Position numbers and translations under genes: made by a program. 64,000 nucleotides of DNA from an uncultured delta proteobacterium (GTDB taxonomy: Bacteria; Myxococcota_A; Polyangia; Fen-1088), in assembly GCA_963737265.1 (NCBI GenBank), contig CAVTRY010000011.1:960001-1024000 (forward strand). Reading direction: 5' to 3'. The notes beneath the pieces are model-generated. The model saw only the letters and a program-made list of their open reading frames with translations, ran no database searches and was not told the DNA's origin. Below, in pieces: positions 24,440 through 47,146 of the stretch. Position 1 is the first letter of the stretch. Every line of letters begins with the position of its first letter.

Positions 24440-26573
24440 ATGGCACTGTTAGGACAAGACACGTTGGTTACCGGGCCCTTGGACAAGGGCGTGCTTCTTC
24501 TCGAGACATTCGCGGGTTATGAGGCGCTGGGGGAACCCTACAACTACGAGTTGACCCTTCTTTCCACCAACCCCGCCATCCCGGTGGGAGACGTGCTCGG
24601 CAAGCCTCTCACCGTCCACATCAAGCTCGACAGCGGCAAATATCGCTATTTCCACGGCATCGTCACCTATTTCGCCAAGGTCGGCCCGACCCACGGACAT
24701 ACCCGCTACGTCGCCGTCCTCAACCCACAACTTTCCCTGTTCGAGTACACGCGCGACTGCCGGATCATGGATGAAGAAGGCCAGACAGCCCTCAGCATCG
24801 TGACCGACGTGCTTGCCAAACGCGGGTTCACCGACGTCGACTCGGGTTCCATCAAGGACCACACCTATCGCCAACACGACTACTGCGTGCAATACTGCGA
24901 GAGCGATTCTCAACTTCGTGCACCGACTGCTCGAAGAGGAGGGCATCTATTACTTCTTCAAGCATGAAAACGGCCTGCACACGATGGTGCTTGCCGATTC
25001 CACCACCGCCCATGCCAAGGTACCCGGCTACGAAACCGTCCTCTGCCGCCCCATGCTCCACGCGCAAGCGCGCGATGAGGAGCACTTCTGGTCGCTCAGG
25101 GTAACCGGGGGACTTTACCCCGGCAAGCTCACCGTGGTGCGCGGATACGACTACACGCTCATCCGGCCATCCGCCGTCCAATTTGGCCAGCAGCCGTCGG
25201 GCGAGCCCCGGCCCGGCTCGGATTTCGAAGACTACGACTATCCAGGGGGACTTTCGCCAGAGGCGGAAGCCAACCAAGAAGCCCTGGTGCGCATGCAGAT
25301 GGACCGCGTCGCCAACACGGTGATCGAGGTCGAGGGCAACACCATGGGGCTAGGCGTGGGCGCCCTCGTCAGCCTCGCCAAGCCGTTGTCCATCGACGGC
25401 ATCGCCTTCAATCCCTTTTGGGGCGAAGACGGCTTCGCCAAGGAATACCTCATCACCTCCGCGCGCTACTCCATCAGCATCAACCAGTACGAATCCGGCG
25501 ACGTGGCGAAATCCGACCAGCCATTCAAGGCGAGCTACACCTTGCTCGACAGCCAGGTCCAGTTCCGCCCCCAGCGCGGGGCGAGCAAGCCCAGGATCGA
25601 AGGCCCCCAGACCGCCGTCGTGGTGGGGCCCGCCGACGAAGAAATCTGCACCGACACCGACAAGCTCGGCCGCGTGAAGGTGCAGTTCGACTGGGATCGC
25701 CTCGGCAAACACGACGAGAAATCCTCTTGCTGGGTCCGTGTGTCCCAAGCCTGGGCCGGGGCGAAATGGGGCGCCTTTCACCTTCCACGCATCGGCCACG
25801 AAGTCATCGTGGAATTCCTCGACGGCGATCCCGACCGCCCCATCGTCACCGGCCGGGTCTACAACGCCGACAACCTGCCGCCCTACGACTCGCCCACCCA
25901 AAGCGGCATCAAGAGCCGCAGCACCAAAGGCGGCACCCCCAGCAACTTCAACGAAATCCGCTTCGAGGATCTCAAAGGCAAGGAAGAGCTGCACATCCAG
26001 GCCGAAAAGGACATGTCGACGTTGGTGAAGAACAATGAATCGCTTTCCGTGGGCGGCGACCGCAGCGTCAGCGTCACCGGCAATCAGTCGGTGAGCATCT
26101 CTGGCAAGGGCTCTAGTCCCATTCATTCCACGACCAAGGTCACCGGCAAATACGATCTCGACGTCAGCGACACCATTCACATCAAGGCGCCGACGTCGAT
26201 CACGCTAGAATGTCCAGGCAGCAAGATCGAGATGCTGCCGGGGAAGATAACCATCACGTCGGGTGACGGATCGACGATCGTGCTGGACGCCAATGTTCTG
26301 ACCAAGGCAAGCGGAGGCGCGAATACGCTGCATGATGCTCATGTCCTATCGCAGTCGAACGATGGAGCAAAGGTGCTGCTCGACGCCAACGTTCGCGCCG
26401 AGTCGAGCGGCGGAAGCGCGTTACAACTGGACGGCAACGCTCTGGTTGACGGTAAAGGCACGGCTGACCTTCAGGGCGCATCATCGGCAGCCATCTCGGC
26501 GGGTGGCTCATCGGTCAAGACCAGCTCCGGCGGAATCGACGTGTCTGGCTCAATGGTAAATCACAACGTTTGA
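24440..26573 (+). CDS. vgrG: VgrG spike protein copy 1 (full length), single-base frameshift at ~24907
   Basis: YCVQY.ESD, LLEEEGIYYFF, GPQTAVVVGP, GRVKVQFDWDR, SCWVRVSQAWAG, PRIGHEVIVEFLDGDPDRP, HIQAEKDM; one extra T relative to copy 3 (gagcgattct vs gagcgatct). Confidence 0.93.
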
Positions 26574-27205
26574 GCACAGCGAATAAATCCCCCCTTGCGT
26601 CGGATGCCGGGCCTGAGTCGGTTGGGCTGGTAACCGTGGAGGCGTCCAGAATGAAACAGGACATGACGAACGCTGTCGCCATGGATGGCGAGTCCGCCCA
26701 AGCGGATCCGGCGAAGAGTGTCGCACCCGTTCCCATCGGCGACGGGTGGAGCGCTGAGCTTTCGCCCTTGCGCGGGGGCGCCATGCTGAGAGTTGGCCGG
26801 GATGCAACCGACCAGTCCATGGAAATAGCTATTTCCCTCACCAGCGATGGTCCCGTCCTGCGAGCACGGGCTGCATCCTTCGAGATCGAGGCCCAGAAGG
26901 ATCTCGTCGTGCGGTGCGAACGATTCCAGGTCGAGGCACGGGAATCCGTCGAAATAGTTTCGCGCGGAACGCTCCAGGCCCAGGGCCGCCGGGTCGAAAT
27001 CGAGGCAACCCATGGCTCGGCGCGGGTGTTGGCCAATGACGACGTGCAGCTGCTGGGAGAGAACGTCCTGCTCAATTGCGAGCACCCGCAACCCTCGTTG
27101 CCGGGCTGGGCTCTGCCACCACCCCTTGCCCCAGCTCCGACTCTCGCAGTCGAGCACGTGTCTGGGGACACCGACCTCGTTGCGGACTTGAAGGAGGGGC
27201 GATAG
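26570..27205 (+). CDS. Beta-strand-rich mini-spike-like protein 1
   Basis: Overlaps the vgrG stop; motif ANDDVQLLGENVLLNC shared with ORFs at 42000 and 44725. Confidence 0.6.
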   Translation: MSTANKSPLASDAGPESVGLVTVEASRMKQDMTNAVAMDGESAQADPAKSVAPVPIGDGWSAELSPLRGGAMLRVGRDATDQSMEIAISLTSDGPVLRARAASFEIEAQKDLVVRCERFQVEARESVEIVSRGTLQAQGRRVEIEATHGSARVLANDDVQLLGENVLLNCEHPQPSLPGWALPPPLAPAPTLAVEHVSGDTDLVADLKEGR

Positions 27206-27209
27206 AGCG

Positions 27210-28169
27210 ATGCGTCTGACCAACCAAACAGGTGCGGCGGCCTATCTCTACAAGGTGAATCTTCTCGAGCCTGAGTTGCGAGTCGTCGCGATCGTCAAGA
27301 AGACCTATGCGCTCGCCCCGGACGGCCGCCTAGCCGCAGCCGACGAGCCGCTCCCACTCGTCGTCGACCAGCTTGTCACTGAGCACGGATGCTTTCACGG
27401 CGAGATCTTTTTTCGCAAACGTGGCATAGACCTTTGCGTGCTCGGCACTGCCCGCTTCGAGACACCCGTCCGGCATGCACGGGTGAGGATCGATGTTGGC
27501 CCGTGGAATCACGAGCTGAGGGTCCTCGGCGATCGGGTGTGGACCCGAGACCGCAGCGGCACCCTGGTGCCGACCGCGCCGGCACCGTTCCAAGAAATGC
27601 CGATAAGCTATGCCCGAGCCTTCGGCGGAGTGGCGCAGGTCAACGGAGAAGATGTGCCTTTGCCCGACAATCCCCTCGGGCGCGGATACTACGAAGCTGC
27701 GGAACACGCGATCGGCAAGCCTCTGCCCAACATCGAACCCGCGAACTGGTCAGCCGCGTGCAGCTGGAACACGCACATTCCCGTCGCTGGCTGGGCGCCC
27801 TACCCGATGTACTGGGGGCTGCGCGCTTCACGCGCGGTCAAGGTCGAGCCGAAGAGCGGCGAGATCCTCGACGTGTCCACGGAGATCTTCAACCACGCCC
27901 ATCCCGAGTTGATCCTCGATCGCCTGGAACCGGGCACGCCCGTACGAATCACCGGCCTCCGCAAGGCTTCCATCGTCCTCGCTGTTCCGCGCGAACGTCC
28001 TCGCGTCGAATGTCACGTGGGCGAGAAAGTCTCCGAAGCCTTTGGGGAGATCGACGGCTTGTTTCTTTGGACCGACGCAAACCGGGTCGTGGTCACCTGG
28101 CGGGCTCGTTTTCGCTACGCCTTCCGACGCGAAGAAATCCGACGCGCAACCCTTAGCTTCGTGCAGTGA
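27210..28169 (+). CDS. DUF2169-like T6SS adaptor
   Basis: VAIVKKTY, LRVLGDRVW, MPISYARAFGG, NPLGRGY, LPNIE, FNHAHP. Confidence 0.85.
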   Translation: MRLTNQTGAAAYLYKVNLLEPELRVVAIVKKTYALAPDGRLAAADEPLPLVVDQLVTEHGCFHGEIFFRKRGIDLCVLGTARFETPVRHARVRIDVGPWNHELRVLGDRVWTRDRSGTLVPTAPAPFQEMPISYARAFGGVAQVNGEDVPLPDNPLGRGYYEAAEHAIGKPLPNIEPANWSAACSWNTHIPVAGWAPYPMYWGLRASRAVKVEPKSGEILDVSTEIFNHAHPELILDRLEPGTPVRITGLRKASIVLAVPRERPRVECHVGEKVSEAFGEIDGLFLWTDANRVVVTWRARFRYAFRREEIRRATLSFVQ

Positions 28170-28176
28170 GGATCCA

Positions 28177-29142
28177 ATGCCAGGTTTTCCAGTTCTAACC
28201 ACCCTTCAGCCAATCTTTGGCCTCGATGCTCACAAGTCGCTCCCGCCGCCTCCACCCGTGGGCCCCCTCATTCTCCCACACCCTGTCGTTTGGGTCTCTG
28301 GTCTCAGCCAGAAGACCGGCTTCATGTGGGCCATTGCTGCTACCAGCCGTGCCAGCTCGCCAGAGAGCGGTTGCCTCACGCCCACGCGCGTGGGCCCTGG
28401 CTATGCCTGCGGGCGAACGCACGACGCCGGCCCGCATCCAGGGCATATTTGGCCGAATGCGCTGCTTCCGCTCATTCTGCTCAGCTCAGCGAGCAAGGCC
28501 GAGTTTGGCTCGGGCACGGTAAAAACGGCCATCGCGCCACAGGCCGGTGGCTCGGCGGACATGTGCATCAATGTCGCTTTCGTTCTCAACACCAACCTCG
28601 ACTGCCAAGACTTTCCGTTTCCCCCCTTACCCTCAGGAATGTGCTTCACCACGAACTACACGGTCTATGCTGGCTTCACCTTCATCGATTTCCTGCGGGG
28701 AATAATGCAGATGTTCATGGATGCCGTGGTAACGTGGCTCGTGGGGTTGGGTTGTGCAGCGCTCTCCGTGGTGCTCAGCGGTGTGATTGGGAAGCTATTG
28801 GGCAGGGCCGCACTATCCGACATATTGGGAGGGTTTAAGGGAATCTTCAACCTGGGAGGTCAGAGCAATGCCGTCTCCAGGGCCGTCATCTCCGACTACG
28901 CCTTAAGCGGTCGGGCTTTCGTTGAAGGGTGGCGAGCCATTCCCGGAGCGCTTGCCTCTGCGTGGAAGCAAGCTCCAGTCGAGCAGATTGTGGGACCGGT
29001 TACCGGCCTCCTCGGAACCTTCGGCGCAGGGACACCCATTGGATATGCCCCAAAGGACGCGAAGGTTGGCGGATGGAATCCCGATCCCCATAGCACTGTC
29101 AATGCTTGGTACTCTAGTTGGATCGACAATTGGCACAAATAG
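28177..29142 (+). CDS. Non-canonical PAAR-like effector A with hydrophobic C-terminal region
   Basis: Pro/His-rich N-terminus (GLDAH..PPPP, RTHDAGPHPGH, SSASKAEFG..TVK) followed by TM-like helices; downstream of DUF2169. Confidence 0.65.
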   Translation: MPGFPVLTTLQPIFGLDAHKSLPPPPPVGPLILPHPVVWVSGLSQKTGFMWAIAATSRASSPESGCLTPTRVGPGYACGRTHDAGPHPGHIWPNALLPLILLSSASKAEFGSGTVKTAIAPQAGGSADMCINVAFVLNTNLDCQDFPFPPLPSGMCFTTNYTVYAGFTFIDFLRGIMQMFMDAVVTWLVGLGCAALSVVLSGVIGKLLGRAALSDILGGFKGIFNLGGQSNAVSRAVISDYALSGRAFVEGWRAIPGALASAWKQAPVEQIVGPVTGLLGTFGAGTPIGYAPKDAKVGGWNPDPHSTVNAWYSSWIDNWHK

Positions 29143-29153
29143 GACACGCCCTA

Positions 29154-29786
29154 ATGACCGCCCAGTCTTCACAATTGGAGGACATCGCGCGGACTCTCGG
29201 ATTCACCCTGGATGAGCTTGCGCTCAATCGTACCGGACAGATCTCAGCACGACAGTCTTGGGAGAACGTGCGCCTAGCGGCCTGGGGAATGGGGCTAATC
29301 GTGGCGGTTATTGTGGCGATTCTAGTTCTTGTCTTCATAATCAAGCCGACAGGAATCCTGCGGCTCGTCAACTGTCTCTTTCTGATTCCTGGATTTCTTG
29401 TTGTGTCGTATATTGGCTGCGTCTGGATACGCGGTGTCATCGAGCGGAGGGTTCTTGTTACCGAGGGCAGCCTGAGTTTCCATGGTGCGGGGCGAGGACC
29501 GCCAACTATGGTCATCGGGCAAGCCAGAGTCCCGGCTCCGCCGCACGCGAACGCCGTCCTGACGGAGAACACGCCATACCGGGTGTTCTATCTCGCCCAT
29601 TCGAGAATCTTCCTCAGCATAGAACCCTTCGCCCGGACGCATCAGCAGGTGGAAGGAATTCCCGATGAGCCCTTCCGCGCAGACAGCAGAGAACCTAACG
29701 AAGACGCCAACCCTGTCTGCCGTGGGCGTGGTGCGGGCCCTGACGGCAATAGCTGGCGCGTCGGCGTGGCCGGAAAGGAAGCCTGA
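29154..29786 (+). CDS. 2-TM membrane protein, putative immunity paralog A1
   Basis: LGFTLDELALNR.GQIS, two TM helices, YRVFYL...FLSIEP; directly after effector A. Confidence 0.65.
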   Translation: MTAQSSQLEDIARTLGFTLDELALNRTGQISARQSWENVRLAAWGMGLIVAVIVAILVLVFIIKPTGILRLVNCLFLIPGFLVVSYIGCVWIRGVIERRVLVTEGSLSFHGAGRGPPTMVIGQARVPAPPHANAVLTENTPYRVFYLAHSRIFLSIEPFARTHQQVEGIPDEPFRADSREPNEDANPVCRGRGAGPDGNSWRVGVAGKEA

Positions 29787-29843
29787 ATTGTCAACCGCGG
29801 ATGCACCCAGGATGCCGGGCCTGCATTTGGGGCGCATGTCCCA

Positions 29844-30332
29844 ATGACTGCTCAGCCTTCACAATTGGAGCACATCGCTCGGGCCCTCGGATTCACCCTG
29901 GATGAGCTTGCGCTCAATCGCCTTGGGCAGATCTCAGCCCATCAAGGATGGGAAATAGTACGCCAGGCGCTGGCCTTCGCCGGGGGCGCCTTGATGGGAA
30001 TCGGCGCGATCCTCGTCGTTGTCTTCCTAGTGAAACCAGTCGGGCTCTGGCGTCTGTGCTACGTATTGCTGGTAGCTGGGGCTGTGCTGATGATTGTCAT
30101 CGGGTCGCAGTCGATCGTGGCGGCCTGGCAGCACAAGGTCGTCAGTGCAGAAGGGGCATTGGATGTGCAAGTGTTTGGCCGAGGTGGCCCCATCATGTTC
30201 GTCGGCCGCGCGCATATTCCAGCGCCCACGGGAGCCGCGAGTGTTCTGACGAAAGGCGAGAATTACCGCCTCCATTACATCCAAGGCTTGGATCAATTCC
30301 TCAGCATCGAGCCGGTATCCAAGGCACCCTGA
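29844..30332 (+). CDS. 2-TM membrane protein, putative immunity paralog A2
   Basis: Same motifs as A1; 5' nucleotide sequence nearly identical to A1. Confidence 0.65.
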   Translation: MTAQPSQLEHIARALGFTLDELALNRLGQISAHQGWEIVRQALAFAGGALMGIGAILVVVFLVKPVGLWRLCYVLLVAGAVLMIVIGSQSIVAAWQHKVVSAEGALDVQVFGRGGPIMFVGRAHIPAPTGAASVLTKGENYRLHYIQGLDQFLSIEPVSKAP

Positions 30333-30348
30333 GGGCAGAGTATCTTCG

Positions 30349-30891
30349 ATGGCTTCCTCCACTCCAATCGTCGCAGCAGCGACCGTGTCCATGGAAGACT
30401 TCGCCAAACGTGTCGGATTCACGTTAGAGGATTTGGCGCTCAATCGCGTTGGCAAAGTCGCACCCCACCAACTTTCCGAAAGCTACACACAAGCGGCAGG
30501 CCTCGCGGGGGTCGTTCTGATCATGTTGGGTTTCGTTCTGGTCCTTTCCTTCTTTGGAAAGGTAGGCGTAAAAGGAATCATCTTGGTTGTGGTTTTCTCA
30601 GCCTTGGGCGTCGTGTTTGCCGTTCTGTCTTGGAAAACCATGGCTGGGGCATGGAAACGCAACGTAGCCAGCGCCGAAGGAAATCTCGTATTAACCCATT
30701 CACCTGGCTCGGCCAGGCAGATTGTGGTTATCGGGTCGTACAACTGGCACATCGACCCGGGAACGCCAGTCCCCGCCGTGCTTGTTCCAGGCGCGCGCTA
30801 TCGTGTGTTCTATCTGGCTGGCTCCGACATGTTTCTTAGCATCGAACCGGTCGCTGATGCTCCCACCCTAGATCAAGGAAAGTCGCAATGA
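30349..30891 (+). CDS. 2-TM membrane protein, putative immunity paralog A3
   Basis: GFTLEDLALNRVGKVA, two TM, YRVFYL...FLSIEP. Confidence 0.65.
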   Translation: MASSTPIVAAATVSMEDFAKRVGFTLEDLALNRVGKVAPHQLSESYTQAAGLAGVVLIMLGFVLVLSFFGKVGVKGIILVVVFSALGVVFAVLSWKTMAGAWKRNVASAEGNLVLTHSPGSARQIVVIGSYNWHIDPGTPVPAVLVPGARYRVFYLAGSDMFLSIEPVADAPTLDQGKSQ

Positions 30892-32086
30892 CGCCAGCCG
30901 AACCCGTCAAGGTCGAGAAACCAGCATCCAAGCCAGCGGTCTCGGCGGTACGCGTCGGGGGCGACCCCGAGGGTAAGGGGTGGCGTCTAGGCGTCATCGG
31001 CAAACGCACTTGGCGAGTCGTGCGAGGGCGTTGCGAATTGGCACCCGAGCAGGTTCCTCTCGTCGAAGAGCCGCTCTACGACGAACAGCGCGCGGTCCTC
31101 ATCCACGATGCAGACGTCTTGCTCAACCGCAGAAAGACAGACGTCGTCGTCCAAGGCCATGTCTATCCCACGGGCGGCCGGACGCCATTCGACTTTGGCG
31201 TTCAGGTCGGCAACTTGGTTCGTCTAGCCCGTGCCTTTGGCCCACGCAGCGTGGCGCCGAATCCAGCGACTGGCCGGCCGCGCTTTTCCGCGCCAGCTTC
31301 CATAGAAAAGATCTCCCTCACTTGGGAGAGTGCCTATGGCGGCGTCGACCTCGCCATGCGCGCCGAGGTAGGTGATCCATTCGAAGGCCCAATAAGGGAG
31401 GCTGGCGGTGAACCGGATCCCCGGTTCGGACTCTATGCCTATCCCCGCAATCCGGTCGGCCGCGGTTACGTCATCGAGCCGAGCAAGGCGGCGTTCGAAG
31501 CCTGCGAGTTGCCATTGCTTGAAGACCCCGAGTCGTTCCTCACGTCTGACAACTTGGTCCGAGGAGATTTCGTCCGCTGGCCCCAAGGCCCGGCCGTGGC
31601 CGGTTTCGGCTGGCTCTCCTACGCGTTCTTCCCCCGCAGCGCACTGCTAGGCGTTAAGCCCTTGGTGTACGACGGCGAAAACATCCCCCCATCGGGTTTT
31701 CGAGAGGTCAAGCGCGGTGACATGCATGATGCCGCCGTCCGCTCTGAGCGACCGATGACCGAGCGATTGGGAATCAAGGTGGCGCAAGCCTCAGCTATCG
31801 GCATGCGCACGGATTCCGTAGCCCCAGGCGATGTTGTCGCCTTGCACGGGCTGCACCCCCGCGAATTGCGCTGGACCTTCCGACTCCCTGCTGAAACGCC
31901 ACGCATGCACGTCCGTTTCAACGGCGAAAAGCCAATCGCCCTGCCTCCCCCGCTCATCCGGACCGTCCTTCTCGAACCCGACGAAGAGCGCCTGACGTTG
32001 GTCTGGACGGCCGAGTTACCGGTGCCCGCGCCCCCAGGATCAAACGGCTCGACGGTCTCCAGCACGTCGTCCTGTGGAACCAGTGA
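30888..32086 (+). CDS. DUF2169-like protein (long type); probable true stop TGA 32084-32086 after an indel near 32043
   Basis: KTDVVVQG, LTWESAYGG, YPRNPVGRGY, LPLLEDP, TVLLEPDEERLTLVW; an alternative frame from ~32043 reads RLDGLQHVVLWNQ-stop right before vgrG identity begins. Confidence 0.7.
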
Positions 32087-32088
32087 GC

Positions 32089-33563
32089 CCGTGGTGCGCG
32101 GATACGACTACACGCTCATCCGGCCATCCGCCGTCCAATTTGGCCAGCAGCCGTCGGGCGAGCCCCGGCCCGGCTCGGATTTCGAAGACTACGACTATCC
32201 AGGGGGACTTTCGCCAGAGGCGGAAGCCAACCAAGAAGCCCTGGTGCGCATGCAGATGGACCGCGTCGCCAACACGGTGATCGAGGTCGAGGGCAACACC
32301 ATGGGGCTAGGCGTGGGCGCCCTCGTCAGCCTCGCCAAGCCGTTGTCCATCGACGGCATCGCCTTCAATCCCTTTTGGGGCGAAGACGGCTTCGCCAAGG
32401 AATACCTCATCACCTCCGCGCGCTACTCCATCAGCATCAACCAGTACGAATCCGGCGACGTGGCGAAATCCGACCAGCCATTCAAGGCGAGCTACACCTT
32501 GCTCGACAGCCAGGTCCAGTTCCGCCCCCAGCGCGGGGCGAGCAAGCCCAGGATCGAAGGCCCCCAGACCGCCGTCGTGGTGGGGCCCGCCGACGAAGAA
32601 ATCTGCACCGACACCGACAAGCTCGGCCGCGTGAAGGTGCAGTTCGACTGGGATCGCCTCGGCAAACACGACGAGAAATCCTCTTGCTGGGTCCGTGTGT
32701 CCCAAGCCTGGGCCGGGGCGAAATGGGGCGCCTTTCACCTTCCACGCATCGGCCACGAAGTCATCGTGGAATTCCTCGACGGCGATCCCGACCGCCCCAT
32801 CGTCACCGGCCGGGTCTACAACGCCGACAACCTGCCGCCCTACGACTCGCCCACCCAAAGCGGCATCAAGAGCCGCAGCACCAAAGGCGGCACCCCCAGC
32901 AACTTCAACGAAATCCGCTTCGAGGATCTCAAAGGCAAGGAAGAGCTGCACATCCAGGCCGAAAAGGACATGTCGACGTTGGTGAAGAACAACCAGTCGA
33001 CCGACGTCGGCGGTAATCGCACCCTGACCGTGCACGGAAAGCAAACGACCACCGTCACCAAGGAAGAAACGCAGACCTATAAGAACACCCGCACCATGAC
33101 GGTGACCGACCTCGACACCGACACCTACAAAGGTGGACGAAAAGAGACCGTCGAGAAGGGCGACTCGCTGGCAGTGCTTAGCTCCAACAAGACCGCCACA
33201 ATCGATGGCAAGTACAATATCCAGGTAACGTCCCAATACGAAGTGGTCCAGGGGGAGAAAAACAAGGTCACCCTCCTGGATCCAGACATTACAATCGCGA
33301 ACGGCCAGTGCACGATCAAGCTCTCGGCCGGCGCCGCCTCGGTGACCGCCGCGGACAGCCTGACCCTCACTTGTGGCCAGACCAGCATCACCATGATGAA
33401 GAGCGGCTCAATCGAGGTCAGCGGTTCCGCTGGCGTCGCCATCATTGGCGGAGGCGAAGTACACGCCACGCCTTCTGGCGTGGATATCAAGGGAGCCAAG
33501 GTCGATGTCACCGGAACTGGCCCGGTTACCGTCACCGGTGCGATAGTCAAGGTCAATGGTTGA
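32089..33563 (+). pseudogene. vgrG: 5'-truncated vgrG copy 2 with distinct C-terminal spike tip (orphan cassette; in frame with the upstream DUF2169 ORF as sequenced)
   Basis: 32089-32992 matches 25132-26035 (offset 6957), then diverges to NQSTDVGGNRTL...GAIVKVNG; lacks ~230 N-terminal codons. Confidence 0.85.
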
Positions 33564-34715: not shown

Positions 34716-34727
34716 GAGGAACCGAAG

Positions 34728-35900: not shown

Positions 35901-35979
35901 CACCCGGTCGAACCAATCTGCCTCATCATCTTCCCTACCCTTCTTCGACGGCAATAGTAGCGTCACTCTGATTTAGTGA

Positions 35980-38129: not shown

Positions 38130-38132
38130 AGA

Positions 38133-38714: not shown

Positions 38715-38726
38715 GAGGAACCGAAG

Positions 38727-39866
38727 ATGCCCCTACCAATACCCGTGTCGATTACCAACGACTTGGCGATGCCGCTCATTCCCATGGTGGTGATGACACT
38801 GCATGATGTGGTTCCGCCCATGGCGCCACCGATCCCTGCGGCCCCATGCGTGGAGACGCCGGTCATGATGATGTGGCCGCCCGGGTTCGCCCTATTTCAG
38901 AACAAGTTCACAACGACGGTCTTGCACAAGGCGATGCCCATCGCGCTCGACGGGCACAATTGCGGCTACATGTTGCCGCATGTCTCGATACCGATATTGA
39001 ACACACTGACGCCGATACAGATAGCGTTTTCCTCACGCAAGATGGTGTTTTCCGCCGCCAAGGTCAAGGCCAATGGTACGCCTATTGCCACAACGGCCCC
39101 GCTTCTGCTTCCGATGATGTGCTGTGCGGATCCTGTAACATTTCCCACCGGGGCTGCGCCCACCAATTGCCTGAACACGGTATCCGTGGGAGTTACATGG
39201 ACCGACGCCATCCTAGGTTGGGTTGCGATTGGACTGACAGCGGCCGCCGAGGGCTGGACCCGAAAGCTTCCCGAACAGAAAGACCACTGGCTAGAAGAGC
39301 GGCTCAAAAACCTGAAGCAGAGATTCCTATTGGCCGACAGGCCAGCCAGATGGCTTGCGAAGACCACCGCCGGAATTGCCAGTGGCCTTGCTAGGATCGC
39401 ATTTACCGGCGAAGGGAGCGTTTCCGTCTCCTTCGGTTCTGGCTATCTTGGCGGCAGCATTTCCTATTCCAGGAGCAGTGGCAGCAAGACGATCGGCATT
39501 GTCGGCAACGAAGACACCAGCGGCCGGCTGCTCGGTCCGACCACGAGCAGACAGGGGACGGCCCAATACACCTGGAGGGCTGACGGCACATCGACGACAA
39601 CCACTGGTTCCAAGTCGGTGATATCTGACGGTGGCTTTGTGTCGGCCGAAGGATCGCAAGGAACATCCAGCACTTCGACCAACTACGACAAGGATGGCAA
39701 CGTCCAAGGCACATCGACGACCAAGACGGCGACCCACTCTGATGACACACCCTGGTCTGGTGAAACTCAGCTTCAACAGCAAAAGAACAGAAACGAACCT
39801 GGTCAGGCCCCCACTACGTCGAGCAGTAGCTATTCGGATGCCTCCAAGTGGGGAACGGTCTTGTGA
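38727..39866 (+). CDS. Non-canonical PAAR-like effector B2
   Basis: First ~165 aa near-identical to B1 (to WTDAILGW); diverged middle and C-terminus. Confidence 0.7.
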   Translation: MPLPIPVSITNDLAMPLIPMVVMTLHDVVPPMAPPIPAAPCVETPVMMMWPPGFALFQNKFTTTVLHKAMPIALDGHNCGYMLPHVSIPILNTLTPIQIAFSSRKMVFSAAKVKANGTPIATTAPLLLPMMCCADPVTFPTGAAPTNCLNTVSVGVTWTDAILGWVAIGLTAAAEGWTRKLPEQKDHWLEERLKNLKQRFLLADRPARWLAKTTAGIASGLARIAFTGEGSVSVSFGSGYLGGSISYSRSSGSKTIGIVGNEDTSGRLLGPTTSRQGTAQYTWRADGTSTTTTGSKSVISDGGFVSAEGSQGTSSTSTNYDKDGNVQGTSTTKTATHSDDTPWSGETQLQQQKNRNEPGQAPTTSSSSYSDASKWGTVL

Positions 39867-39950
39867 TGCGCAATCCTGCCTCTTCCCCAATCCAAGGTCG
39901 CCGGCCGCGGCGGTGTTGGTTGTTTCGAGGCTGCCGGAACGGTCGAATTC

Positions 39951-40712
39951 GTGCCACAATTCGATGACATCCACCGTTCGCTGGACCGGCTAGGAATTCG
40001 CATTTTCATCTGGGCCCTTTTGTCGATTCTGCCGATTGCAGTGGGCGTCGCGAATATCGCCTTTTCCACCGGAAAGACAATAACTATTGTGGCCTTGGCA
40101 CTCGTGATAGCCTTGTTTTTCTTCTGGGTCCGGTACGACTTACAGGTGAGGCCCGTGATCCGCGCCGAACGCATCTTGGCACCGCTTACCGCATTCCTCC
40201 GACTGGCTCCAACGACTCCGCGCCAAAGCAAAACGCGATCGATACGCGAGGCGCGGGACCGCACCAATAGGTTCGTCGAGGGCGTCTGGGAGGATAGACT
40301 GGTGGCTGTCGGTTTCGATCCACCGACGGGGTCTGACGACAATTCCTCGCCCAAAGGGCACACTTCGGTCTTCCTTACTGTCTCGCACCCCTTGTCGGCC
40401 GGCATGGTCCATCTGGCAAGGTGGAATGCAATTGAGGTCTTGGCCAGCCGTTTTTTTGCTTTTCTCGGGTCTCCGGTTCTGAAGCGCGCATCCGACGACT
40501 TCGGCGCATACGGAGAAGACGCGGAAATCGCGCGATTGTTTACCCCCGCGGTGTTGGCATTGGTGCGTGCATTTCCGCGCGACATATGCCCCACAGTCGA
40601 TGGCAATGAAATCAGAATGAAATGGGAAGGCCTTGAGACCGATCCCAAGGTTATCGAAGCCGCGTTCCACTTGCTCAAGACCATCAGCGACGCCGGGGCC
40701 GCAGAGAGGTAA
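39951..40712 (+). CDS. Membrane-anchored putative immunity protein B2
   Basis: Two N-terminal TM segments; C-terminal homology to B1. Confidence 0.6.
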   Translation: MPQFDDIHRSLDRLGIRIFIWALLSILPIAVGVANIAFSTGKTITIVALALVIALFFFWVRYDLQVRPVIRAERILAPLTAFLRLAPTTPRQSKTRSIREARDRTNRFVEGVWEDRLVAVGFDPPTGSDDNSSPKGHTSVFLTVSHPLSAGMVHLARWNAIEVLASRFFAFLGSPVLKRASDDFGAYGEDAEIARLFTPAVLALVRAFPRDICPTVDGNEIRMKWEGLETDPKVIEAAFHLLKTISDAGAAER

Positions 40713-40721
40713 CTCAACATC

Positions 40722-41969
40722 ATGTCTGACAAATCACCCCAAGGCACTCCGCGCAAACCTGCTCGCCCTCTCTACGATGCCATCGTCGAGCTAGAGCCCA
40801 AGCCCAAGGGCGAGATCCCGACGTTTGCCTATGTGTTGCTCAAGACGACGTACACCATCGCAGGCGGACGCGCGATTTTGGCCGAGCCCGAGCCTCTGAA
40901 ATTCGACATCTATCGCGACGAGACCCTCGATCCGAGGATGCCGCCGGGTTCGGATTTCTGGGTTTCCAAGGCCGCTACCGATGTGGTGGTTCAGGGATCC
41001 GCCTATGCGCCGGGAGGCAAGCCTGTCGGTCGCATGGAGGTTGCAGTGCGCATCGGCCAGGGAAGCAAGCAAATCGCCGTGTTTGGCCGCCGGGCTGTGA
41101 CCTGGGATGCAGATCGACGAATCCGCATCGCGCCACCCGAATCCTTCACCGAGATGGCCCTCACGTATTTCAACGCCTACGGTGGGCTTGACCCGCGCGT
41201 GCCCATTCCGGAGCCCGAGCGAGAAGATTACATGCGACTCTCGGCGCTGGGCTTGACCTTCGACCATCCGGGGGCCTACCCGAGAAATCTCATTGGCAAG
41301 GGCTATCTGGTTTCGCCCGAGCCCATGGACAATTTCGAAATGCCCAACCTGGAGGATCCCGACGATCTTTTGACCGGGCAACGCATGGTCGTGGGATCAC
41401 CCGAGCTTTGGTACAAACAGCCGCTGCCCTGGTGTTTCGACTGGACCAACGCTCTCATGTTCCCGCGCTTGCTCTACGGCGGCATGGACGCATGGTTCCC
41501 GTGTACCAATGATGCGGCCCTACCGGAAGTAAGACGGCAGTTCCTTCCATCCCAACTCAAGCAGCGCATGGAACAAACGCCGGCGATCGGCGCCGAATAC
41601 TACCAGGAAGCATCTTTGGGCATGGTCTTGCGCCAGCCCATCGGCGGGCAACAGATTTCCCTTTCCGGCATGCATCCCGAGGAACCCATCATGACTTTCG
41701 CAATCCCGCCCGATCCCCCCATCGAGATTGAAATCGAAGGAAAGCGCGAAGCCGTTCAGCCCCGCCTGACGAACCTGGTGATTCGACCCGCCGAAAAAAA
41801 GTTCTGCACGGTTCACTTCGCTCGCACGGCCGCCCTCCCGCGCGCCTTCATCCCGGAAATCCACAAGGACATCCCCCTCTCGGCTCGCATTGCCCGCGAC
41901 GTCCCGCTGAAATACGAGAGCCCGGCAACCGTTCGCGACCGACTTGCGGCGGCAAGCAAAACGAGCTGA
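40722..41969 (+). CDS. DUF2169-like protein (long type), intact
   Basis: LLKTTY, KAATDVVVQGSAYAP, VFGRR, YFNAYGG, YPRNLIGKGY, MPNLEDP. Confidence 0.82.
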   Translation: MSDKSPQGTPRKPARPLYDAIVELEPKPKGEIPTFAYVLLKTTYTIAGGRAILAEPEPLKFDIYRDETLDPRMPPGSDFWVSKAATDVVVQGSAYAPGGKPVGRMEVAVRIGQGSKQIAVFGRRAVTWDADRRIRIAPPESFTEMALTYFNAYGGLDPRVPIPEPEREDYMRLSALGLTFDHPGAYPRNLIGKGYLVSPEPMDNFEMPNLEDPDDLLTGQRMVVGSPELWYKQPLPWCFDWTNALMFPRLLYGGMDAWFPCTNDAALPEVRRQFLPSQLKQRMEQTPAIGAEYYQEASLGMVLRQPIGGQQISLSGMHPEEPIMTFAIPPDPPIEIEIEGKREAVQPRLTNLVIRPAEKKFCTVHFARTAALPRAFIPEIHKDIPLSARIARDVPLKYESPATVRDRLAAASKTS

Positions 41970-41999
41970 AGAAACCTGAAGGCGCTATGATTCACCATC

Positions 42000-42608
42000 A
42001 TGCGAAAGCCAGATGAATCCGCGCCTGTCGTAGAATCCGAACAGAAGCCCGAGCCCGCCGCCGGCCTCTTCGAGGCGATCCTCGAAGGCAAGAAAGCCAC
42101 GCCAACGTGGCCGGTGGGCGAACCGTTCGTTGTCGAGTGCGTGGACGCGCGCCACCCGACGTTGCAAGGCAGGGCGCTGGTGCGCTGGGAGGCGCCGGGG
42201 CGAGATGCGGTCGAAGCGTGGGTGCCGACCTTGCACGGGCTGGCCGTGCGCAAGGGAGATCGCCTGCTGCTGCAAACCCCGTACGGCGCCAGCGAGCCCA
42301 TCGCCATTGGCGTGATTGACGGTTTTCTGCCCAGGCCGGAGCCCGCGCGCGTGGTGGGAACGCAGCTCGAGCTGAAGCAGGACGAGGTCTTTCAGGTGCG
42401 AACCCAAGACGGCCAACCGTTGGTCGAGATCGTTCGCGACGCCGCCGGCCCGGTCGTCCGGCTACTGCAGGCCGACACGCGCCTTGAGCTTCAGGGCAAG
42501 CTCAGCATCACCGCCGCCGAGCTCGATCTCAAGGCCTCGAAAGGCCAGGTCCGCATCGAAGCGTCGGACGACGTTAAACTCATCGGCGAGCTGATTAACC
42601 TCAACTGA
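42000..42608 (+). CDS. Mini-spike protein with gp5/gpV-like OB-fold and short beta-strand tail
   Basis: HPTLQGRALVRW...AWVP...KGDRLLL...PIAIGVI parallels spike OB folds; ends ASDDVKLIGELINLN. Confidence 0.55.
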   Translation: MRKPDESAPVVESEQKPEPAAGLFEAILEGKKATPTWPVGEPFVVECVDARHPTLQGRALVRWEAPGRDAVEAWVPTLHGLAVRKGDRLLLQTPYGASEPIAIGVIDGFLPRPEPARVVGTQLELKQDEVFQVRTQDGQPLVEIVRDAAGPVVRLLQADTRLELQGKLSITAAELDLKASKGQVRIEASDDVKLIGELINLN

Positions 42609-44668
42609 TGACTTCGGGATGCCATCAGGGAGCGGTGGGAGACGTGCTCGGCAAGCCTCTCACCGTCCACATCAAGCTCAACAGCGGCAAATATCGCTAT
42701 TTCCACGGCATCGTCACCTATTTCGCCAAGGTCGGCCCGACCCACGGACATACCCGCTACGTCGCCGTCCTCAACCCACAACTTTCCCTGTTCGAGTACA
42801 CGCGCGACTGCCGGATCATGGATGAAGAAGGCCAGACAGCCCTCAGCATCGTGACCGACGTGCTTGCCAAACGCGGGTTCACCGACGTCGACTCGGGTTC
42901 CATCAAGGACCACACCTATCGCCAACACGACTACTGCGTGCAATACCGCGAGAGCGATCTCAACTTCGTGCACCGACTGCTCGAAGAGGAGGGCATCTAT
43001 TACTTCTTCAAGCATGAAAACGGCCTGCACACGATGGTGCTTGCCGATTCCACCACCGCCCATGCCAAGGTACCCGGCTACGAAACCGTCCTCTGCCGCC
43101 CCATGCTCCACGCGCAAGCGCGCGATGAGGAGCACTTCTGGTCGCTCAGGGTAACCGGGGGACTTTACCCCGGCAAGCTCACCGTGGTGCGCGGATACGA
43201 CTACACGCTCATCCGGCCATCCGCCGTCCAATTTGGCCAGCAGCCGTCGGGCGAGCCCCGGCCCGGCTCGGATTTCGAAGACTACGACTATCCAGGGGGA
43301 CTTTCGCCAGAGGCGGAAGCCAACCAAGAAGCCCTGGTGCGCATGCAGATGGACCGCGTCGCCAACACGGTGATCGAGGTCGAGGGCAACACCATGGGGC
43401 TAGGCGTGGGCGCCCTCGTCAGCCTCGCCAAGCCGTTGTCCATCGACGGCATCGCCTTCAATCCCTTTTGGGGCGAAGACGGCTTCGCCAAGGAATACCT
43501 CATCACCTCCGCGCGCTACTCCATCAGCATCAACCAGTACGAATCCGGCGACGTGGCGAAATCCGACCAGCCATTCAAGGCGAGCTACACCTTGCTCGAC
43601 AGCCAGGTCCAGTTCCGCCCCCAGCGCGGGGCGAGCAAGCCCAGGATCGAAGGCCCCCAGACCGCCGTCGTGGTGGGGCCCGCCGACGAAGAAATCTGCA
43701 CCGACACCGACAAGCTCGGCCGCGTGAAGGTGCAGTTCGACTGGGATCGCCTCGGCAAACACGACGAGAAATCCTCTTGCTGGGTCCGTGTGTCCCAAGC
43801 CTGGGCCGGGGCGAAATGGGGCGCCTTTCACCTTCCACGCATCGGCCACGAAGTCATCGTGGAATTCCTCGACGGCGATCCCGACCGCCCCATCGTCACC
43901 GGCCGGGTCTACAACGCCGACAACCTGCCGCCCTACGACTCGCCCACCCAAAGCGGCATCAAGAGCCGCAGCACCAAAGGCGGCACCCCCAGCAACTTCA
44001 ACGAAATCCGCTTCGAGGATCTCAAAGGCAAGGAAGAGCTGCACATCCAGGCCGAAAAGGACATGTCGACGTTGGTGAAGAACAATGAATCGCTTTCCGT
44101 GGGCGGCGACCGCAGCGTCAGCGTCACTGGCAATCAGTCGGTGAGCATTTCAGGCAAGGGCAAGAGTCCCGTGCACAGCACGGTCAACGTCACCGGCAAA
44201 CACACGCTCGATGCCAGCGACACCATCAAGATCCAGGCGCCCACCTCGATCACCCTTGAGTGCGGCGGCAGCACCATTGTGATGGTGCCGGGCAAGATCA
44301 CCATCACGGCGGGAGGCGGTGCAGAGGTCGTCCTCGATGCCAATGCCTTGACTCACTCCAGCGCGGGCGCCAAAACCCTCCACGATGCCAACGTGCTCCA
44401 CCAATCCGTTGCTGGATCCAAAGTCCTTCTCGATGCCAATGCTCTGTCCCAGGCGTCCGGCGGCGCGAAAGTGCTATTGGACGGCAATGTTTTGGCCCAA
44501 TCCTCAGGCGGAAGCAAAGTTGCGTTAGACAGCGACGCCATGATCGACGGGGCGGGCAAGGCAACGGTCAAGGGCGCATCAGAAGCGAATCTCGCCGCCG
44601 GCGGATCGGTCAAGGCAAGCCCCGCTGGTGTCGAGGTTTCTGGAGCGCTGGTAAAGATGAATAGCTGA
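42608..44668 (+). CDS. vgrG: VgrG copy 3, lacking ~47 N-terminal codons, distinct tip
   Basis: 42633-~44148 matches 24582-~26098; ATG 42608 overlaps the upstream TGA; tip diverged with an extra 16-aa repeat. Confidence 0.88.
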   Translation: MTSGCHQGAVGDVLGKPLTVHIKLNSGKYRYFHGIVTYFAKVGPTHGHTRYVAVLNPQLSLFEYTRDCRIMDEEGQTALSIVTDVLAKRGFTDVDSGSIKDHTYRQHDYCVQYRESDLNFVHRLLEEEGIYYFFKHENGLHTMVLADSTTAHAKVPGYETVLCRPMLHAQARDEEHFWSLRVTGGLYPGKLTVVRGYDYTLIRPSAVQFGQQPSGEPRPGSDFEDYDYPGGLSPEAEANQEALVRMQMDRVANTVIEVEGNTMGLGVGALVSLAKPLSIDGIAFNPFWGEDGFAKEYLITSARYSISINQYESGDVAKSDQPFKASYTLLDSQVQFRPQRGASKPRIEGPQTAVVVGPADEEICTDTDKLGRVKVQFDWDRLGKHDEKSSCWVRVSQAWAGAKWGAFHLPRIGHEVIVEFLDGDPDRPIVTGRVYNADNLPPYDSPTQSGIKSRSTKGGTPSNFNEIRFEDLKGKEELHIQAEKDMSTLVKNNESLSVGGDRSVSVTGNQSVSISGKGKSPVHSTVNVTGKHTLDASDTIKIQAPTSITLECGGSTIVMVPGKITITAGGGAEVVLDANALTHSSAGAKTLHDANVLHQSVAGSKVLLDANALSQASGGAKVLLDGNVLAQSSGGSKVALDSDAMIDGAGKATVKGASEANLAAGGSVKASPAGVEVSGALVKMNS

Positions 44669-44724
44669 GAAGTAGCCGGCGCGACGGCAGCGGGTGCCTG
44701 CTAGAGTGTCGCCTCCAGGACGCC

Positions 44725-45225
44725 ATGGCCGAAACCAAGAATCCAACAACGGTCGAGCTCGCGGCTCGTCACCGGTTGATCATCGACCAGACAGAGCAGG
44801 GCAACGCACTTCGCCTGATATCGCCCGATGGCTCGACGCCAATCACGCTGGAGATCAGCAACGCCGGTGTCGTGCTACGGATCGAGTCGCCTGGCATCGC
44901 TCTGCATGCTTCTGGGAACCTGAGCTTATCCGCAGAACACCTTACGCTGCACGGGCGGACCTCGCTCGATCTTGCCTCCGGGGGCGATCTGAACCTCAAT
45001 GCTGCCGGCGATCTTCATAGCCGAGCCCAGGCACAGGTGCTGCGCGCGGAGCGGGGTTGCGTCGATATTAAGGCAAGTGATGACGTGAAGATCTCGGGCG
45101 AGCGCGTGCTGGTCAATTGCGATGAAACGGTGGACCGACACCCGCACCTTCTCCACAAACGAGCCCTAGAAGAGGCTGCGGAAAAACTTTTGCATCTGCC
45201 GAAGGGAACCGGCGAGACGGATTGA
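44725..45225 (+). CDS. Beta-strand-rich mini-spike-like protein 3
   Basis: ASDDVKISGERVLVNC motif; same position after vgrG as ORF 26570. Confidence 0.6.
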   Translation: MAETKNPTTVELAARHRLIIDQTEQGNALRLISPDGSTPITLEISNAGVVLRIESPGIALHASGNLSLSAEHLTLHGRTSLDLASGGDLNLNAAGDLHSRAQAQVLRAERGCVDIKASDDVKISGERVLVNCDETVDRHPHLLHKRALEEAAEKLLHLPKGTGETD

Positions 45226-45254
45226 TTGGAACGAGGTGCGGGTGCGGTGCGAGG

Positions 45255-46368
45255 TGGCAACCTACTTTCTGGCGGCGCGCGACCGGCGCCATTCCTCAAG
45301 GCCGGTTGGATCAGGTCGTCTGGCCACATATTTCGATGGCCATGACCTCGATGAACTTTTCCCAATCGCGCCATGGAATATTCGGGGCGCTTCAGCCGGG
45401 TCGCGCCTTCACGCCAGACGAACCAGCCATGCCACACGCTCACCGCAACACGCGTTCCACCCTCAAGATCGAGGATGAACGCCGGAATGCCGCGTATGGG
45501 CTCGGATTCGGTACTCCAGAAGTTACTGTAGTCGAATTCGGCGGGGAGAATGCGTTCTGCCCTAGCCTAGCTGGGCACTTGCCCAGGACGCTTGGCTGAC
45601 TGGATCGAAAAGCCGCAGTGTCTCACCCTCCAAACGCAATTCGATCCGGCCCACGGCCCGGCACCGCCGCACACGCCAAAAGGCTAGGAACAGCAACGCG
45701 AAGAACAGTGCGTTCCACGTAATGGCAACCGCACTATCCACCCTCTCGGAAACTGCCAGGCCCCACCGGTCGGAGACGAAGAGGTAAAGGCCCCAGACGA
45801 GGACCCAGAGCACGACCGGCAGATACAATCGCACGGGTACCCACCGACCCACGGTGTGGCGCCCGAGTGAAAATGAAACCGGGTGCGGTTCCAAGGGCAT
45901 TGTTGCAACCTACTTCCTGGCGGCGCGCGACCGGGACCATTCCGCAAGGCCGGTTGGATCGGATCGTCTGATGAACGCCGGGACGCCACGAATATACCCG
46001 TCGCCGGTACTGTAGTCGAATTCGGCGGCGAGGACGCGTTCTGCCGTGGCTGGGCACTTGCCCAGGACCGCTTGGCTGACTGGATCGAAAAGCCGCAGCG
46101 CCCCCTCCACCAAACGCAGCTCAAGCCGGCCTTTGGCGCGCCACCGCCGCCAGCGCCACGGAATCGTGAACGTCAACGCCGCGGAAGATGCGCCTAAGAC
46201 AATACTAAGCACGGTACCGGCCCCCTCACCAATGACCGGCTCGATCAACTTGACAACGACGGCACCGCCCAGCCCCACCAGGGCCGGCTGCCAAGAGACC
46301 CAAATTGGCGACCATTGACCATGGTAGCGCTCGATGGGAAACTTCGCCAAACTCGGGCCGGGTGCCAC
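45255..46368 (-). pseudogene. Two degenerate tandem paralogs of a 2-TM membrane protein, opposite to the T6SS operon
   Basis: Both encode GR.ELRL....LRLFDPVSQA..GKCPA..AER.L.AEFDYS; frameshifts, a CTAGG duplication and a deletion; shared ~55-bp downstream sequence at ~45257 and ~45905. Confidence 0.6.
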
Positions 46369-46603
46369 AAATTGCCTATATCACAAGGCGCATCAGGCAC
46401 GCAAGGACGGTTGTTTGATCGGGTACGTGTGTCCGCCGAGAGAATGGATGGAAAACCCGGGCCTGTGCAACGCACCCTGTTCGATCACGCTGTCCAAGGT
46501 CAGGCCTCACGCGTTTTTGCAACGAAAAAGGCTGTGTGCTGAACCAATTGGTGGGATGCCGAAAAAGTGGTATGAGGCGCAATAGGCATCTGAGGTTTTG
46601 CGG

Positions 46604-47146
46604 ATGGATCTGAATAACTACACCCCCTATCCCGCCCTTCTTTCGAGATTCGCTGTAGATCTCGAACGAGATCTGATGGGGTCCGCGCTCGTTGCCAGGG
46701 TGACCTATGACGTCATCGGCAACGGCCTTGTTCCCAGCAAAGAGCAAATCTGGAAGGTTTCTCCCCAGCCTTGGGAATGTCCCTATGGCTCCATGGAAGC
46801 CGACGACGCCTTCTACAAGGGGGCAACGGATATCTTCTTGTTCGGTTGCGCGCGCTCTCCCGGCCGGCGACCGGTTTCGGCGATGAACGTGACCATTCAG
46901 CTGGGGGCCTTCAGGCGCCAGATCATCGTCTTGGGCGACAGGGTGTGGCTCGCCGGGCGCACGAAGAACACGCTGGTTGCCGGTCCCCCACAGCGCTTCG
47001 TCGAGATGCCTCTCACGCTCGACCGAGCCTTCGGGGGCCGAGCGGAATGGGATGGCCTCAAGGTCCCGTTCGCGGACAATGCCTCCGGCAAGGGATTCTA
47101 CCTCGAGCCGGGCACGGTTTGGCAAATACGTGCTTGCCCGTCTTGA
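46604..47146 (+). pseudogene. 3'-truncated DUF2169-like adaptor
   Basis: MDLNNYTPYPA, VARVTY, VLGDRVW, MPLTLDRAFGG, NASGKGFY, then ends at about half the length of its paralog at 27210. Confidence 0.75.

Follow-up and report, generated by a model that had tools for sequence, protein, structure and literature searches.

Recombination within vgrG, the spike gene of type VI secretion systems (T6SS), is already known to exchange a spike tip together with the genes that follow it, and displacement of vgrG C-termini is likewise in print. In agrobacteria the exchange is described as having a hot spot in the conserved COG3501/TIGR03361 part of vgrG, with replacement of the tip and of all downstream genes (PMC8546570), and Agrobacterium 1D1609 is reported to carry nearly identical VgrG paralogues (some 99%) with DUF2169 modules (PMC6971182). 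For Vibrio cholerae T6SS loci, including vgrG-3, Kirchberger et al. (2017, PMC5361080) describe modules that were inserted with a variable length of conserved vgrG and shifted the older genes downstream, report that orphan immunity genes are retained, and discuss homology-facilitated illegitimate recombination. In bee-gut Orbaceae, vgrG is reported to have diversified by paired homologous and illegitimate recombination that left orphaned fragments behind, and copies broken by nonsense mutations and mobile elements are recorded (Steele and Moran 2021, PMC8125069). Activation of orphans by recombination is described for Rhs of Salmonella Typhimurium LT2, where a 522-bp repeat at 95% identity sufficed and where the authors proposed that the problem of losing immunity is avoided by prior duplication (PMC3967940). 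Here we compare with these systems a 64,000-nucleotide (nt) stretch of an uncultured delta proteobacterium (contig CAVTRY010000011.1, positions 960,001 to 1,024,000; the window; G+C 62%), in which a T6SS core operon of the Myxococcota type has at its 3′ end a vgrG gene, followed by two co-oriented vgrG copies without 5′ ends, and we argue that the locus is probably an array formed by C-terminal displacement of vgrG. In the literature, 'orphan vgrG' mostly denotes a complete gene away from the core cluster; a literature search of limited extent returned no description of a tandem array of beheaded, identical-core vgrG copies with DUF2169 modules.

Three vgrG copies share a core and diverge in their tips

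Self-comparison of the window revealed three co-oriented vgrG copies, the second of which is read through from the start of an adaptor-family gene (ORF, open reading frame; aa, amino acids):

24440-26573, forward strand: vgrG copy 1; 5′ end complete, frameshifted, tip 1 from about 26036
32089-32992, forward strand: core of vgrG copy 2; 5′-truncated, tip 2 from 32993, ORF to 33563, fused to DUF2169-B
30888-33563, forward strand: DUF2169-B::vgrG copy 2; 891-aa ORF with DUF2169 at aa 34-373 (PF09937, 30888 to about 32088)
42608-44668, forward strand: vgrG copy 3; open 686-aa ORF, homology to copy 1 from 42633 (equivalent to 24582), tip 3 from about 44128

A 904-bp core is 100% identical in all three copies (25132-26035, 32089-32992 and 43182-44085). 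The match between copies 1 and 3 is longer (24582-26295 against 42633-44345, 96.9% over 1715 bp) and includes a near-perfect stretch of about 1.5 kb: before 26078 the two differ at three places, namely 24629 (G in copy 1, A in copy 3), 24896 (T/C) and 24907, where copy 1 has an extra T. The copies are spaced by 6,957 bp (copy 1 to copy 2) and 18,050 or 18,051 bp (copy 1 to copy 3), and judged by their coordinates the reading frames of the three cores are compatible. Identity between copies 1 and 2 breaks at 26036, with tips 1 and 2 about 40-50% identical at the nucleotide level (100-nt windows), while that between copies 1 and 3 fades from 26078 through 86% and 76% to about 60% per 100 nt. What varies is the entire C-terminal beta-helix, about 180-195 aa beyond the last shared core residues. 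In a Pfam scan of 70 ORFs (E ≤ 0.01), all three copies showed the gp5-like OB-fold (Phage_base_V, E about 5e-17) with a trimeric beta-helix behind it (Gp5_trimer_C, E 1e-25 to 1e-27). The opening 142 nt of copy 1 are present once in the window, and self-comparison detected no sequence shared between the modules 3′ of the tips. The layout is therefore that of a 5′-complete head followed by co-oriented, 5′-less copies with a conserved core and divergent ends.

None of the three copies carries a complete gp27-like hub in one open frame, and thus none encodes a complete VgrG in this assembly. Copy 1 has its N-terminus (the Phage_GPD profile matches from position 2), but the extra T at 24907 shifts the frame by +1 and leaves two ORFs, 24440-24967 and 24813-26573; in a public protein collection, too, its entry for this contig is a 551-aa piece. 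The substitution at 24896, 11 nt from the extra T, gives copy 1 a Cys where copy 3 has Arg; among relatives this residue is Arg in 34 and Cys in none of 43 pattern-matched sequences (119 searched). We prefer a mutation or a consensus error to programmed frameshifting as the source of the extra T.

Copy 3 begins with 8 unrelated residues in place of the first ~47 aa of copy 1 and thereby lacks ~38-47 N-terminal residues of the VgrG family; its profile matches start late (TIGR03361 39-512 of 513, Phage_GPD 24-302 of 305). The missing segment is kept in 15/15 relatives whose ORFs were read upstream, and the VgrG homologues listed from the database have a median length of 726 aa, compared with 686 aa for copy 3. 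The ATG of copy 3 overlaps the stop codon of the preceding gene, S3, and the sequence before it contains no Shine-Dalgarno motif.

Copy 2 retains Phage_GPD 199-302 only, the last third of the hub domain. In the 891-aa ORF the first ~400 aa hold a complete DUF2169 domain; the DUF2169-B gene is cut near its 3′ terminus and joined in frame to vgrG at nt 32088/32089, exactly where 100% identity to copy 1 sets in. Since the fusion point and the start of this identity coincide, and with none of 77 database hits to residues 1-520 of the ORF combining DUF2169 and VgrG in one protein, the fusion is best read as the scar of a recent, one-off rearrangement. Both junctions, 32088/32089 and 42632/42633, are non-homologous and show no microhomology.

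An earlier, sequence-only reading of this DNA had proposed three vgrG copies at these places, the first after clpV, with core matches of ~0.9 kb and ~1.5 kb, different spike tips beyond the core, 5′ truncation of copies 2 and 3, and distances allowing deletions of ~7.0 and ~18.1 kb. All of this agrees with the identities, profile matches and spacings given above, and ClpV (21403-24384) does directly precede copy 1. That reading had also called copy 1 full-length, which the frameshift contradicts, and copy 2, though 5′-truncated as proposed, is not free-standing.

Cargo genes behind each copy

The genes that follow the three vgrG copies fall into modules 1, 2 (2a and 2b) and 3 and lie as follows, where MITE stands for miniature inverted-repeat transposable element:

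26570-27205, forward strand: S1, small spike-like protein directly after vgrG copy 1; start codon uncertain
27210-28169, forward strand: DUF2169-A, complete adaptor-family gene (PF09937, E 2.6e-50, profile 5-294 of 294)
28177-29142, forward strand: X, putative effector with the N-terminal domain of the E1 family
29118-29786, 29844-30332 and 30349-30891, forward strand: P1, P2 and P3, tandem paralogues, 36-49% identical, with hydrophobic stretches
33594-34715, forward strand: DUF2169-C (PF09937), module 2a
34728-35900, forward strand: E1, effector-like, with a good Shine-Dalgarno motif, module 2a
35980-36690, forward strand: I1, immunity-like, module 2a
36683-38129, forward strand: DUF2169-D, split by a MITE (PF09937 fragments 36683-37267 and 37485-38129)
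38133-38714, forward strand: C-terminal half of DUF2169-C (PF09937 fragment), module 2b
38727-39866, forward strand: E1′, 68% aa identity to E1, module 2b
39951-40712, forward strand: I1′, 45% identity to I1, module 2b
40722-41969, forward strand: DUF2169-D′, intact (PF09937), module 2b
42000-42608, forward strand: S3, complete mini-spike-type gene of a ~200-aa family, after module 2b and before copy 3
44725-45225, forward strand: S4, mini-spike-like, 30% aa identity to S1, module 3
46598-47146, forward strand: DUF2169-E, N-terminal half only (PF09937 fragment), right-hand end of the array

Module 1 comprises S1, DUF2169-A, X, P1-P3 and DUF2169-B, the last being fused to copy 2. Module 2 contains a mosaic tandem duplication of ~4 kb (34167-38165 and 38166-42009), in which the flanks are 95-100% identical and the middle 16-80%. 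The divergence at E1/E1′ (68%) and I1/I1′ (45%) looks like that of polymorphic toxin-immunity pairs. In module 3, S4 is followed by about 1.4 kb (45.2-46.6 kb) of short internal repeats with no convincing genes and then by the half adaptor DUF2169-E, whose C-terminal half is not found anywhere in the window.

The E1 family has 430 representatives at E ≤ 0.001, with a conserved N-terminal domain of ~175 residues that includes invariant His, Gly, Arg and Cys positions, and with variable C-termini. X aligns with this family at an hhalign probability of 94% (E 1.4e-7), and its C-terminal half is, by eye, hydrophobic and glycine-rich. Searched against all six frames of the window, the family profile found E1, E1′ and X only, so module 3 lacks an effector of this kind. 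Each of the three follows a DUF2169 gene; we take them, by inference, for cargo effectors and the hydrophobic proteins encoded downstream for their immunity proteins, P1-P3 being putative immunity genes by position and sequence. The E1-family profile gave nothing significant against the PDB, and the same was true of single-sequence PDB searches with S3, E1 and X. The sole Pfam match among 80 E1-family members, to a Collagen-flanked surface repeat (E 0.0083), is weak and was regarded as spurious.

S3 has 98 homologues, the closest at 90% identity, none of them named and none with a Pfam domain. The only PDB match of the S3-family profile is a VgrG chain (8gra_I, E 1.2e-6), colinear with the OB-fold and beta-helix, while against copy 3 the profile gave only a weak C-terminal match (probability 3%). 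'Mini-spike', in the sense of a spike without the gp27 hub, would be a fair description of S3, and proteins of the S family could extend the spike, cap it or serve as an alternative to it.

As in VgrG-DUF2169-PAAR modules, a DUF2169 adaptor gene (PF09937) adjoins vgrG, but the PAAR or DUF4150 domain that such modules have on or beside the effector was not found: none of the 70 ORFs matched either, and the scan did not recover the PAAR genes expected by the sequence-only reading. Its further claim that each copy has its own adaptor, mini-spike and effector genes fits modules 1 and 2 and fails for module 3, where a mini-spike-like gene and half a DUF2169 gene stand without a recognisable effector.

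Related loci in other genomes

We scanned contigs of public genomes, which gave 78 loci, and inspected the flanks of the 21 closest (L001-L021). The closest VgrG loci come from uncultured Myxococcota or 'delta proteobacterium' genomes at 50-63% identity, and the nearest non-self VgrG in a large protein collection is 75% identical; at these distances the junctions and the module order cannot be compared at strain level. No co-oriented truncated vgrG copy was found in the fetched flanks of the 21 loci, many of which lie on short contigs. L020 has two complete tandem vgrG copies (85% nt identity) and L003 two divergently oriented ones (76%). An S3-like gene directly follows vgrG in L011, L012, L015 and L017, and L003 has an S1-like gene after a DUF2169 gene. 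Tips are reassorted with respect to cores: P0011/P0012 have tips 81% identical to tip 1 and cores at 69%, while the nearest core (P0005, 80%) has a tip at 73%.

In three of the four closest ClpV-linked loci (L008, L009 and L021; not L019), the contig breaks off within the 3′ portion of vgrG (query residues ~575, 458 and 440, respectively). In L019 (10001-11350) vgrG lacks residues ~382-635. Together, the contig ends and this gap suggest repeated or rearranged vgrG cores in relatives, and similar stacks may be common in the clade and left unassembled by short reads.

The locus is probably a C-terminal displacement array

According to the reading that we favour, the array would have arisen in at least two rounds of recombination, each adding a block made of the 3′ part of vgrG, a tip and adaptor, effector and immunity genes next to the promoter-proximal 5′ end. 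In each round, homologous recombination within the conserved part of vgrG would supply one join and illegitimate recombination the other, at the far end of the block, and the resident copy would be displaced downstream with the loss of its 5′ end. Module 3 would then be the oldest, module 2 intermediate and module 1 the newest, and the cores would be identical either through recent events between near-identical cores or through homogenising gene conversion.

Several features of the locus are consistent with such a history. The head and the truncated copies switch sharply from 100% identity to divergent tips, and the lack of homology and of microhomology at the junctions is as expected for illegitimate joins. 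Blocks end inside genes, DUF2169-B near its 3′ end and DUF2169-E halved at the edge of the array. The DUF2169::VgrG fusion has no counterpart among the 77 hits, and the shuffling of tips against cores extends through the wider family. Finally, decay rises away from the head: the cargo of module 1 is intact, module 2 contains the MITE and the mosaic duplication, and module 3 is left without an E-family effector and with one half of an adaptor. The window contains these mobile elements:

37243-37430: 188-bp MITE, splitting DUF2169-D; 11-bp target duplication
50179-50366: second MITE copy, 100% identical, splitting an RCC1-repeat gene
47336-48827, reverse strand: ISL3 copy just beyond the array; 7-bp target duplication, nonsense change at 47867
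54552-56043, forward strand: second ISL3 copy; 7-bp target duplication

The MITE has ~14-bp terminal inverted repeats and is flanked by 11-bp target duplications at both copies, whose identity suggests recent transposition. The two ISL3 copies, 1,492 bp long and inverted, differ by three substitutions and no indels, and this pair, which brackets 48.8-54.5 kb, could mediate an inversion. The gene at ~47192-50575 (forward strand), which encodes a lipoprotein-like signal followed by RCC1 repeats, has been broken twice: an ISL3 copy and the second MITE are inserted in it. Truncation of DUF2169-E by an insertion sequence was considered and rejected: the 7-bp duplications are intact, and the nearer ISL3 copy lies 190 bp beyond, inside another gene. 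No recombinase, invertase or integrase domain was detected in the 70 ORFs scanned, the sole transposase being that of the ISL3 copy at 47336-48827, outside the array. Neither of the marks of programmed cassette switching, a recombinase or two-sided homology, is thus present.

Because the assembly kept the ISL3 copies distinct on the strength of three differences, the identity of the vgrG cores is unlikely to result from repeat collapse. Identical cores beside diverged tips and cargo, such as S1 and S4, point to very recent events or to continuing gene conversion, and either way recombination would seem to be active at the locus. The downstream effector-like and immunity-like genes have start signals of their own and would probably be co-transcribed, so the present value of the array likely lies in the retained immunity and cargo genes rather than in the beheaded spikes.

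Four points weigh against a history of displacement. The order and timing of events rest on one sequence, with no related strain beside it. The identical cores next to old tips call for very recent events or ongoing conversion, and a reservoir under selection would look alike. The orphan frames are open across tips of ~180-195 codons, which relics need not be. Finally, the count of 0/21 for co-oriented truncated copies means that displacement arrays are not demonstrably common in the clade.

Whatever their origin, the direct repeats would be substrates for RecA-dependent deletion or duplication, by which tip 2 or tip 3 could come to follow the 5′ end of vgrG. A crossover between copies 1 and 2 would delete 6,957 bp and yield a predicted product of ~721 aa that keeps the frameshift; one between copies 1 and 3 would delete ~18.05 kb and yield a predicted product of ~725 aa, in frame only if the crossover fell in 24582-24906. 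Along with the deleted segments, putative immunity genes would be lost. With no homology 3′ of the tips, only deletions and duplications are possible, and a non-destructive switch by gene conversion is not.

Alternative explanations

These same repeats raise the possibility, which we regard as rather unlikely, that the array is a silent reservoir of spike tips maintained by selection, in which recombination in the core swaps the tip-adaptor-effector set in subpopulations. As substrates the repeats would be suitable, being perfect over 904 bp and nearly so over ~1.5 kb, co-oriented and compatible in frame, and activation of Salmonella Rhs orphans is reported for a shorter and less similar repeat (PMC3967940); nevertheless, a dedicated recombinase and the 3′ homology for non-destructive exchange are both lacking. 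Copy 3 has in unbroken form the stretch where copy 1 shifts frame, but the head gene as it stands is frameshifted and every copy 1-copy 2 recombinant would keep the defect. While an intact DUF2169-C is present in module 2, as are an immunity-like gene and an effector-like gene that has a good ribosome-binding site, the DUF2169-D of this module is interrupted by the MITE, and module 3, without an effector and with half its adaptor missing, is not a complete warhead. With a simple deletion, moreover, the putative immunity genes would go together with their module, at a cost among siblings (cf. the discussion of Rhs in PMC3967940). Contigs ending in vgrG, as in L008, L009 and L021 among the four closest ClpV-linked loci, hint at repeated cores that may be common in the clade, yet no recombinant forms were found among the compared sequences, of which the nearest non-self VgrG is only 75% identical. 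For a reservoir that actually works, with RecA-dependent duplication or recombination joining the 5′ end to tip 2 or tip 3 and a downstream copy healing the frameshifted head, the chances appear slim.

It is very doubtful that the truncated copies work themselves, copy 3 as a shortened VgrG coupled to S3 and the DUF2169::VgrG fusion as a new adaptor-spike. Both reading frames are open, but the N-terminal segment that copy 3 lacks is kept in all 15 relatives and the homologues listed are longer (median 726 aa against 686 aa). The overlap of the copy 3 ATG with the S3 stop codon would favour coupling, although this ATG has no Shine-Dalgarno motif. That gp27-less mini-spikes are widespread, with 98 S-family homologues, makes a spike without a full hub not unthinkable; the fusion, for its part, has an architecture shared by 0/77 hits and a join exactly at the onset of 100% identity to copy 1, the mark of a recent rearrangement scar.

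Least likely of all, and highly improbable, is an assembly artefact, with strain variants strung together or repeats homogenised by polishing and the frameshift a consensus error: the array is known from assembled sequence alone, in a single 1.4-Mb contig of an uncultured-type lineage, and a frameshift and a substitution 11 nt apart in an otherwise identical stretch do resemble a local consensus error, but a false join would be expected inside the repeat, whereas the truncated copies begin at unique, non-homologous junctions that reads must contain, the near-identical ISL3 copies were kept apart, and the core T6SS genes are full-length with no frame breaks. The frameshift alone could be an error, which would restore a complete copy 1 and leave the array unchanged.

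T6SS core operon and flanking genes

Upstream of the array, on the same strand, the window holds a block of T6SS core genes (12156-24384), which gives the vgrG array TssI-type linkage to them. Each of the following has an NCBIfam/Pfam match:

12156-13235, forward strand: TagH
13430-14476, forward strand: TssA-like gene
14522-15070, forward strand: TssB
15097-16593, forward strand: TssC
16660-17145, forward strand: Hcp
ending at 18062, forward strand: ImpE-like gene
18055-18570, forward strand: TssE
18468-20441, forward strand: TssF
ending at 21511, forward strand: TssG
21403-24384, forward strand: ClpV, directly 5′ of vgrG copy 1

The family matches of the core genes are full-length and their frames unbroken. 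TssJ, TssK, TssL and TssM were not seen among the ORFs scanned (noticed for window 1-24400), and the membrane-complex genes and the baseplate gene TssK may lie elsewhere in the genome. A scan for tRNA genes found none in the window, which therefore gives no sign of tRNA-linked island integration. Counts from promoter and terminator scans of 24-48 kb fell inside the range of shuffled controls and were uninformative.

Beyond the array, 59118-61106 (forward strand) encodes a 662-aa protein, a predicted cell-wall hydrolase near the T6SS region, in which an N-acetylmuramoyl-L-alanine amidase domain is accompanied by an EF-hand and a weak match to M23 peptidase. At 61789-63614 (reverse strand) lie two adjacent genes, for a 417-aa ATPase (AAA_15/AAA_21) and a 191-aa DUF4276 protein; in PADLOC they match the two members of a candidate defence pair, HEC-01A (E 3e-160) and HEC-01B (E 4e-74).

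Significance and comparison with known systems

If the stack is as it seems, it is an unusually clean and fully resolved example of a T6SS spike-and-cargo pile-up behind a core operon, whose value lies in its exact junctions, the one-off adaptor-spike fusion, the gradient of decay and its origin in a little-studied soil lineage. It also shows why related short-read assemblies break inside vgrG. Two unannotated families emerge with it, namely a gp27-less mini-spike, usually encoded after vgrG, and a polymorphic effector-like protein with a ~175-aa N-terminal domain, encoded after DUF2169. Were head-orphan recombinants to exist, whole warheads and not only toxin domains would be exchanged from an internal store.

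Such switching was what the sequence-only reading had proposed, by analogy with the orphan cassettes of Rhs and CdiA loci, and as something not known to have been described. The likeness in layout holds. The novelty does not, since recombination of a vgrG tip with its downstream module is already reported for agrobacteria (PMC8546570) and for V. cholerae vgrG-3 (PMC5361080). As an interpretation, switching appears to be a reasonable analogy that is unproven, partly contradicted by the state of the locus and not new in principle.

Among the T6SS systems, Erwinia amylovora CFBP 1430 has a comparable locus in T6SS-3, and the description of it in PMC3235180 gives no analysis of missing ends, copy identity or mechanism. 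The Orbaceae study is a survey of protein lengths in Gammaproteobacteria, and its treatment of vgrG describes no tandem identical-core array in the main T6SS cluster (PMC8125069). In V. cholerae the displaced remains are, as reported, mostly immunity genes and the tips are effector domains (PMC5361080), whereas here two large pieces of vgrG and whole adaptor and effector sets are left. The agrobacterial modules resemble ours in their conserved core, their polymorphic, effector-specifying C-terminus and their DUF2169 adaptors (PMC8546570, PMC6971182). Unlike our copies, which are tandem, two of them beheaded, and without a detectable PAAR or DUF4150 domain, the agrobacterial paralogues are described as complete genes in separate loci with DUF4150 (PAAR-like) effectors.

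In overall plan the locus matches the Rhs/CdiA/WapA arrays, which are likewise described as a complete head followed by co-oriented, 5′-truncated and divergent copies that keep the core and have linked genes (PMC3967940). For Rhs, homologous recombination between head and orphan is reported to yield an expressed chimera, while here the sequence provides the repeats. These are longer than in Salmonella and perfect, and at 0.9-1.5 kb should be better recombination substrates than 522 bp at 95%, although the head gene here is frameshifted. What varies also differs: in Rhs it is the toxin domain (PMC3967940), and here the whole beta-helix together with separate adaptor, effector and immunity genes. 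Should the reservoir reading prove true, orphan activation of the Rhs type would extend from toxin domains to whole spike-and-cargo modules.

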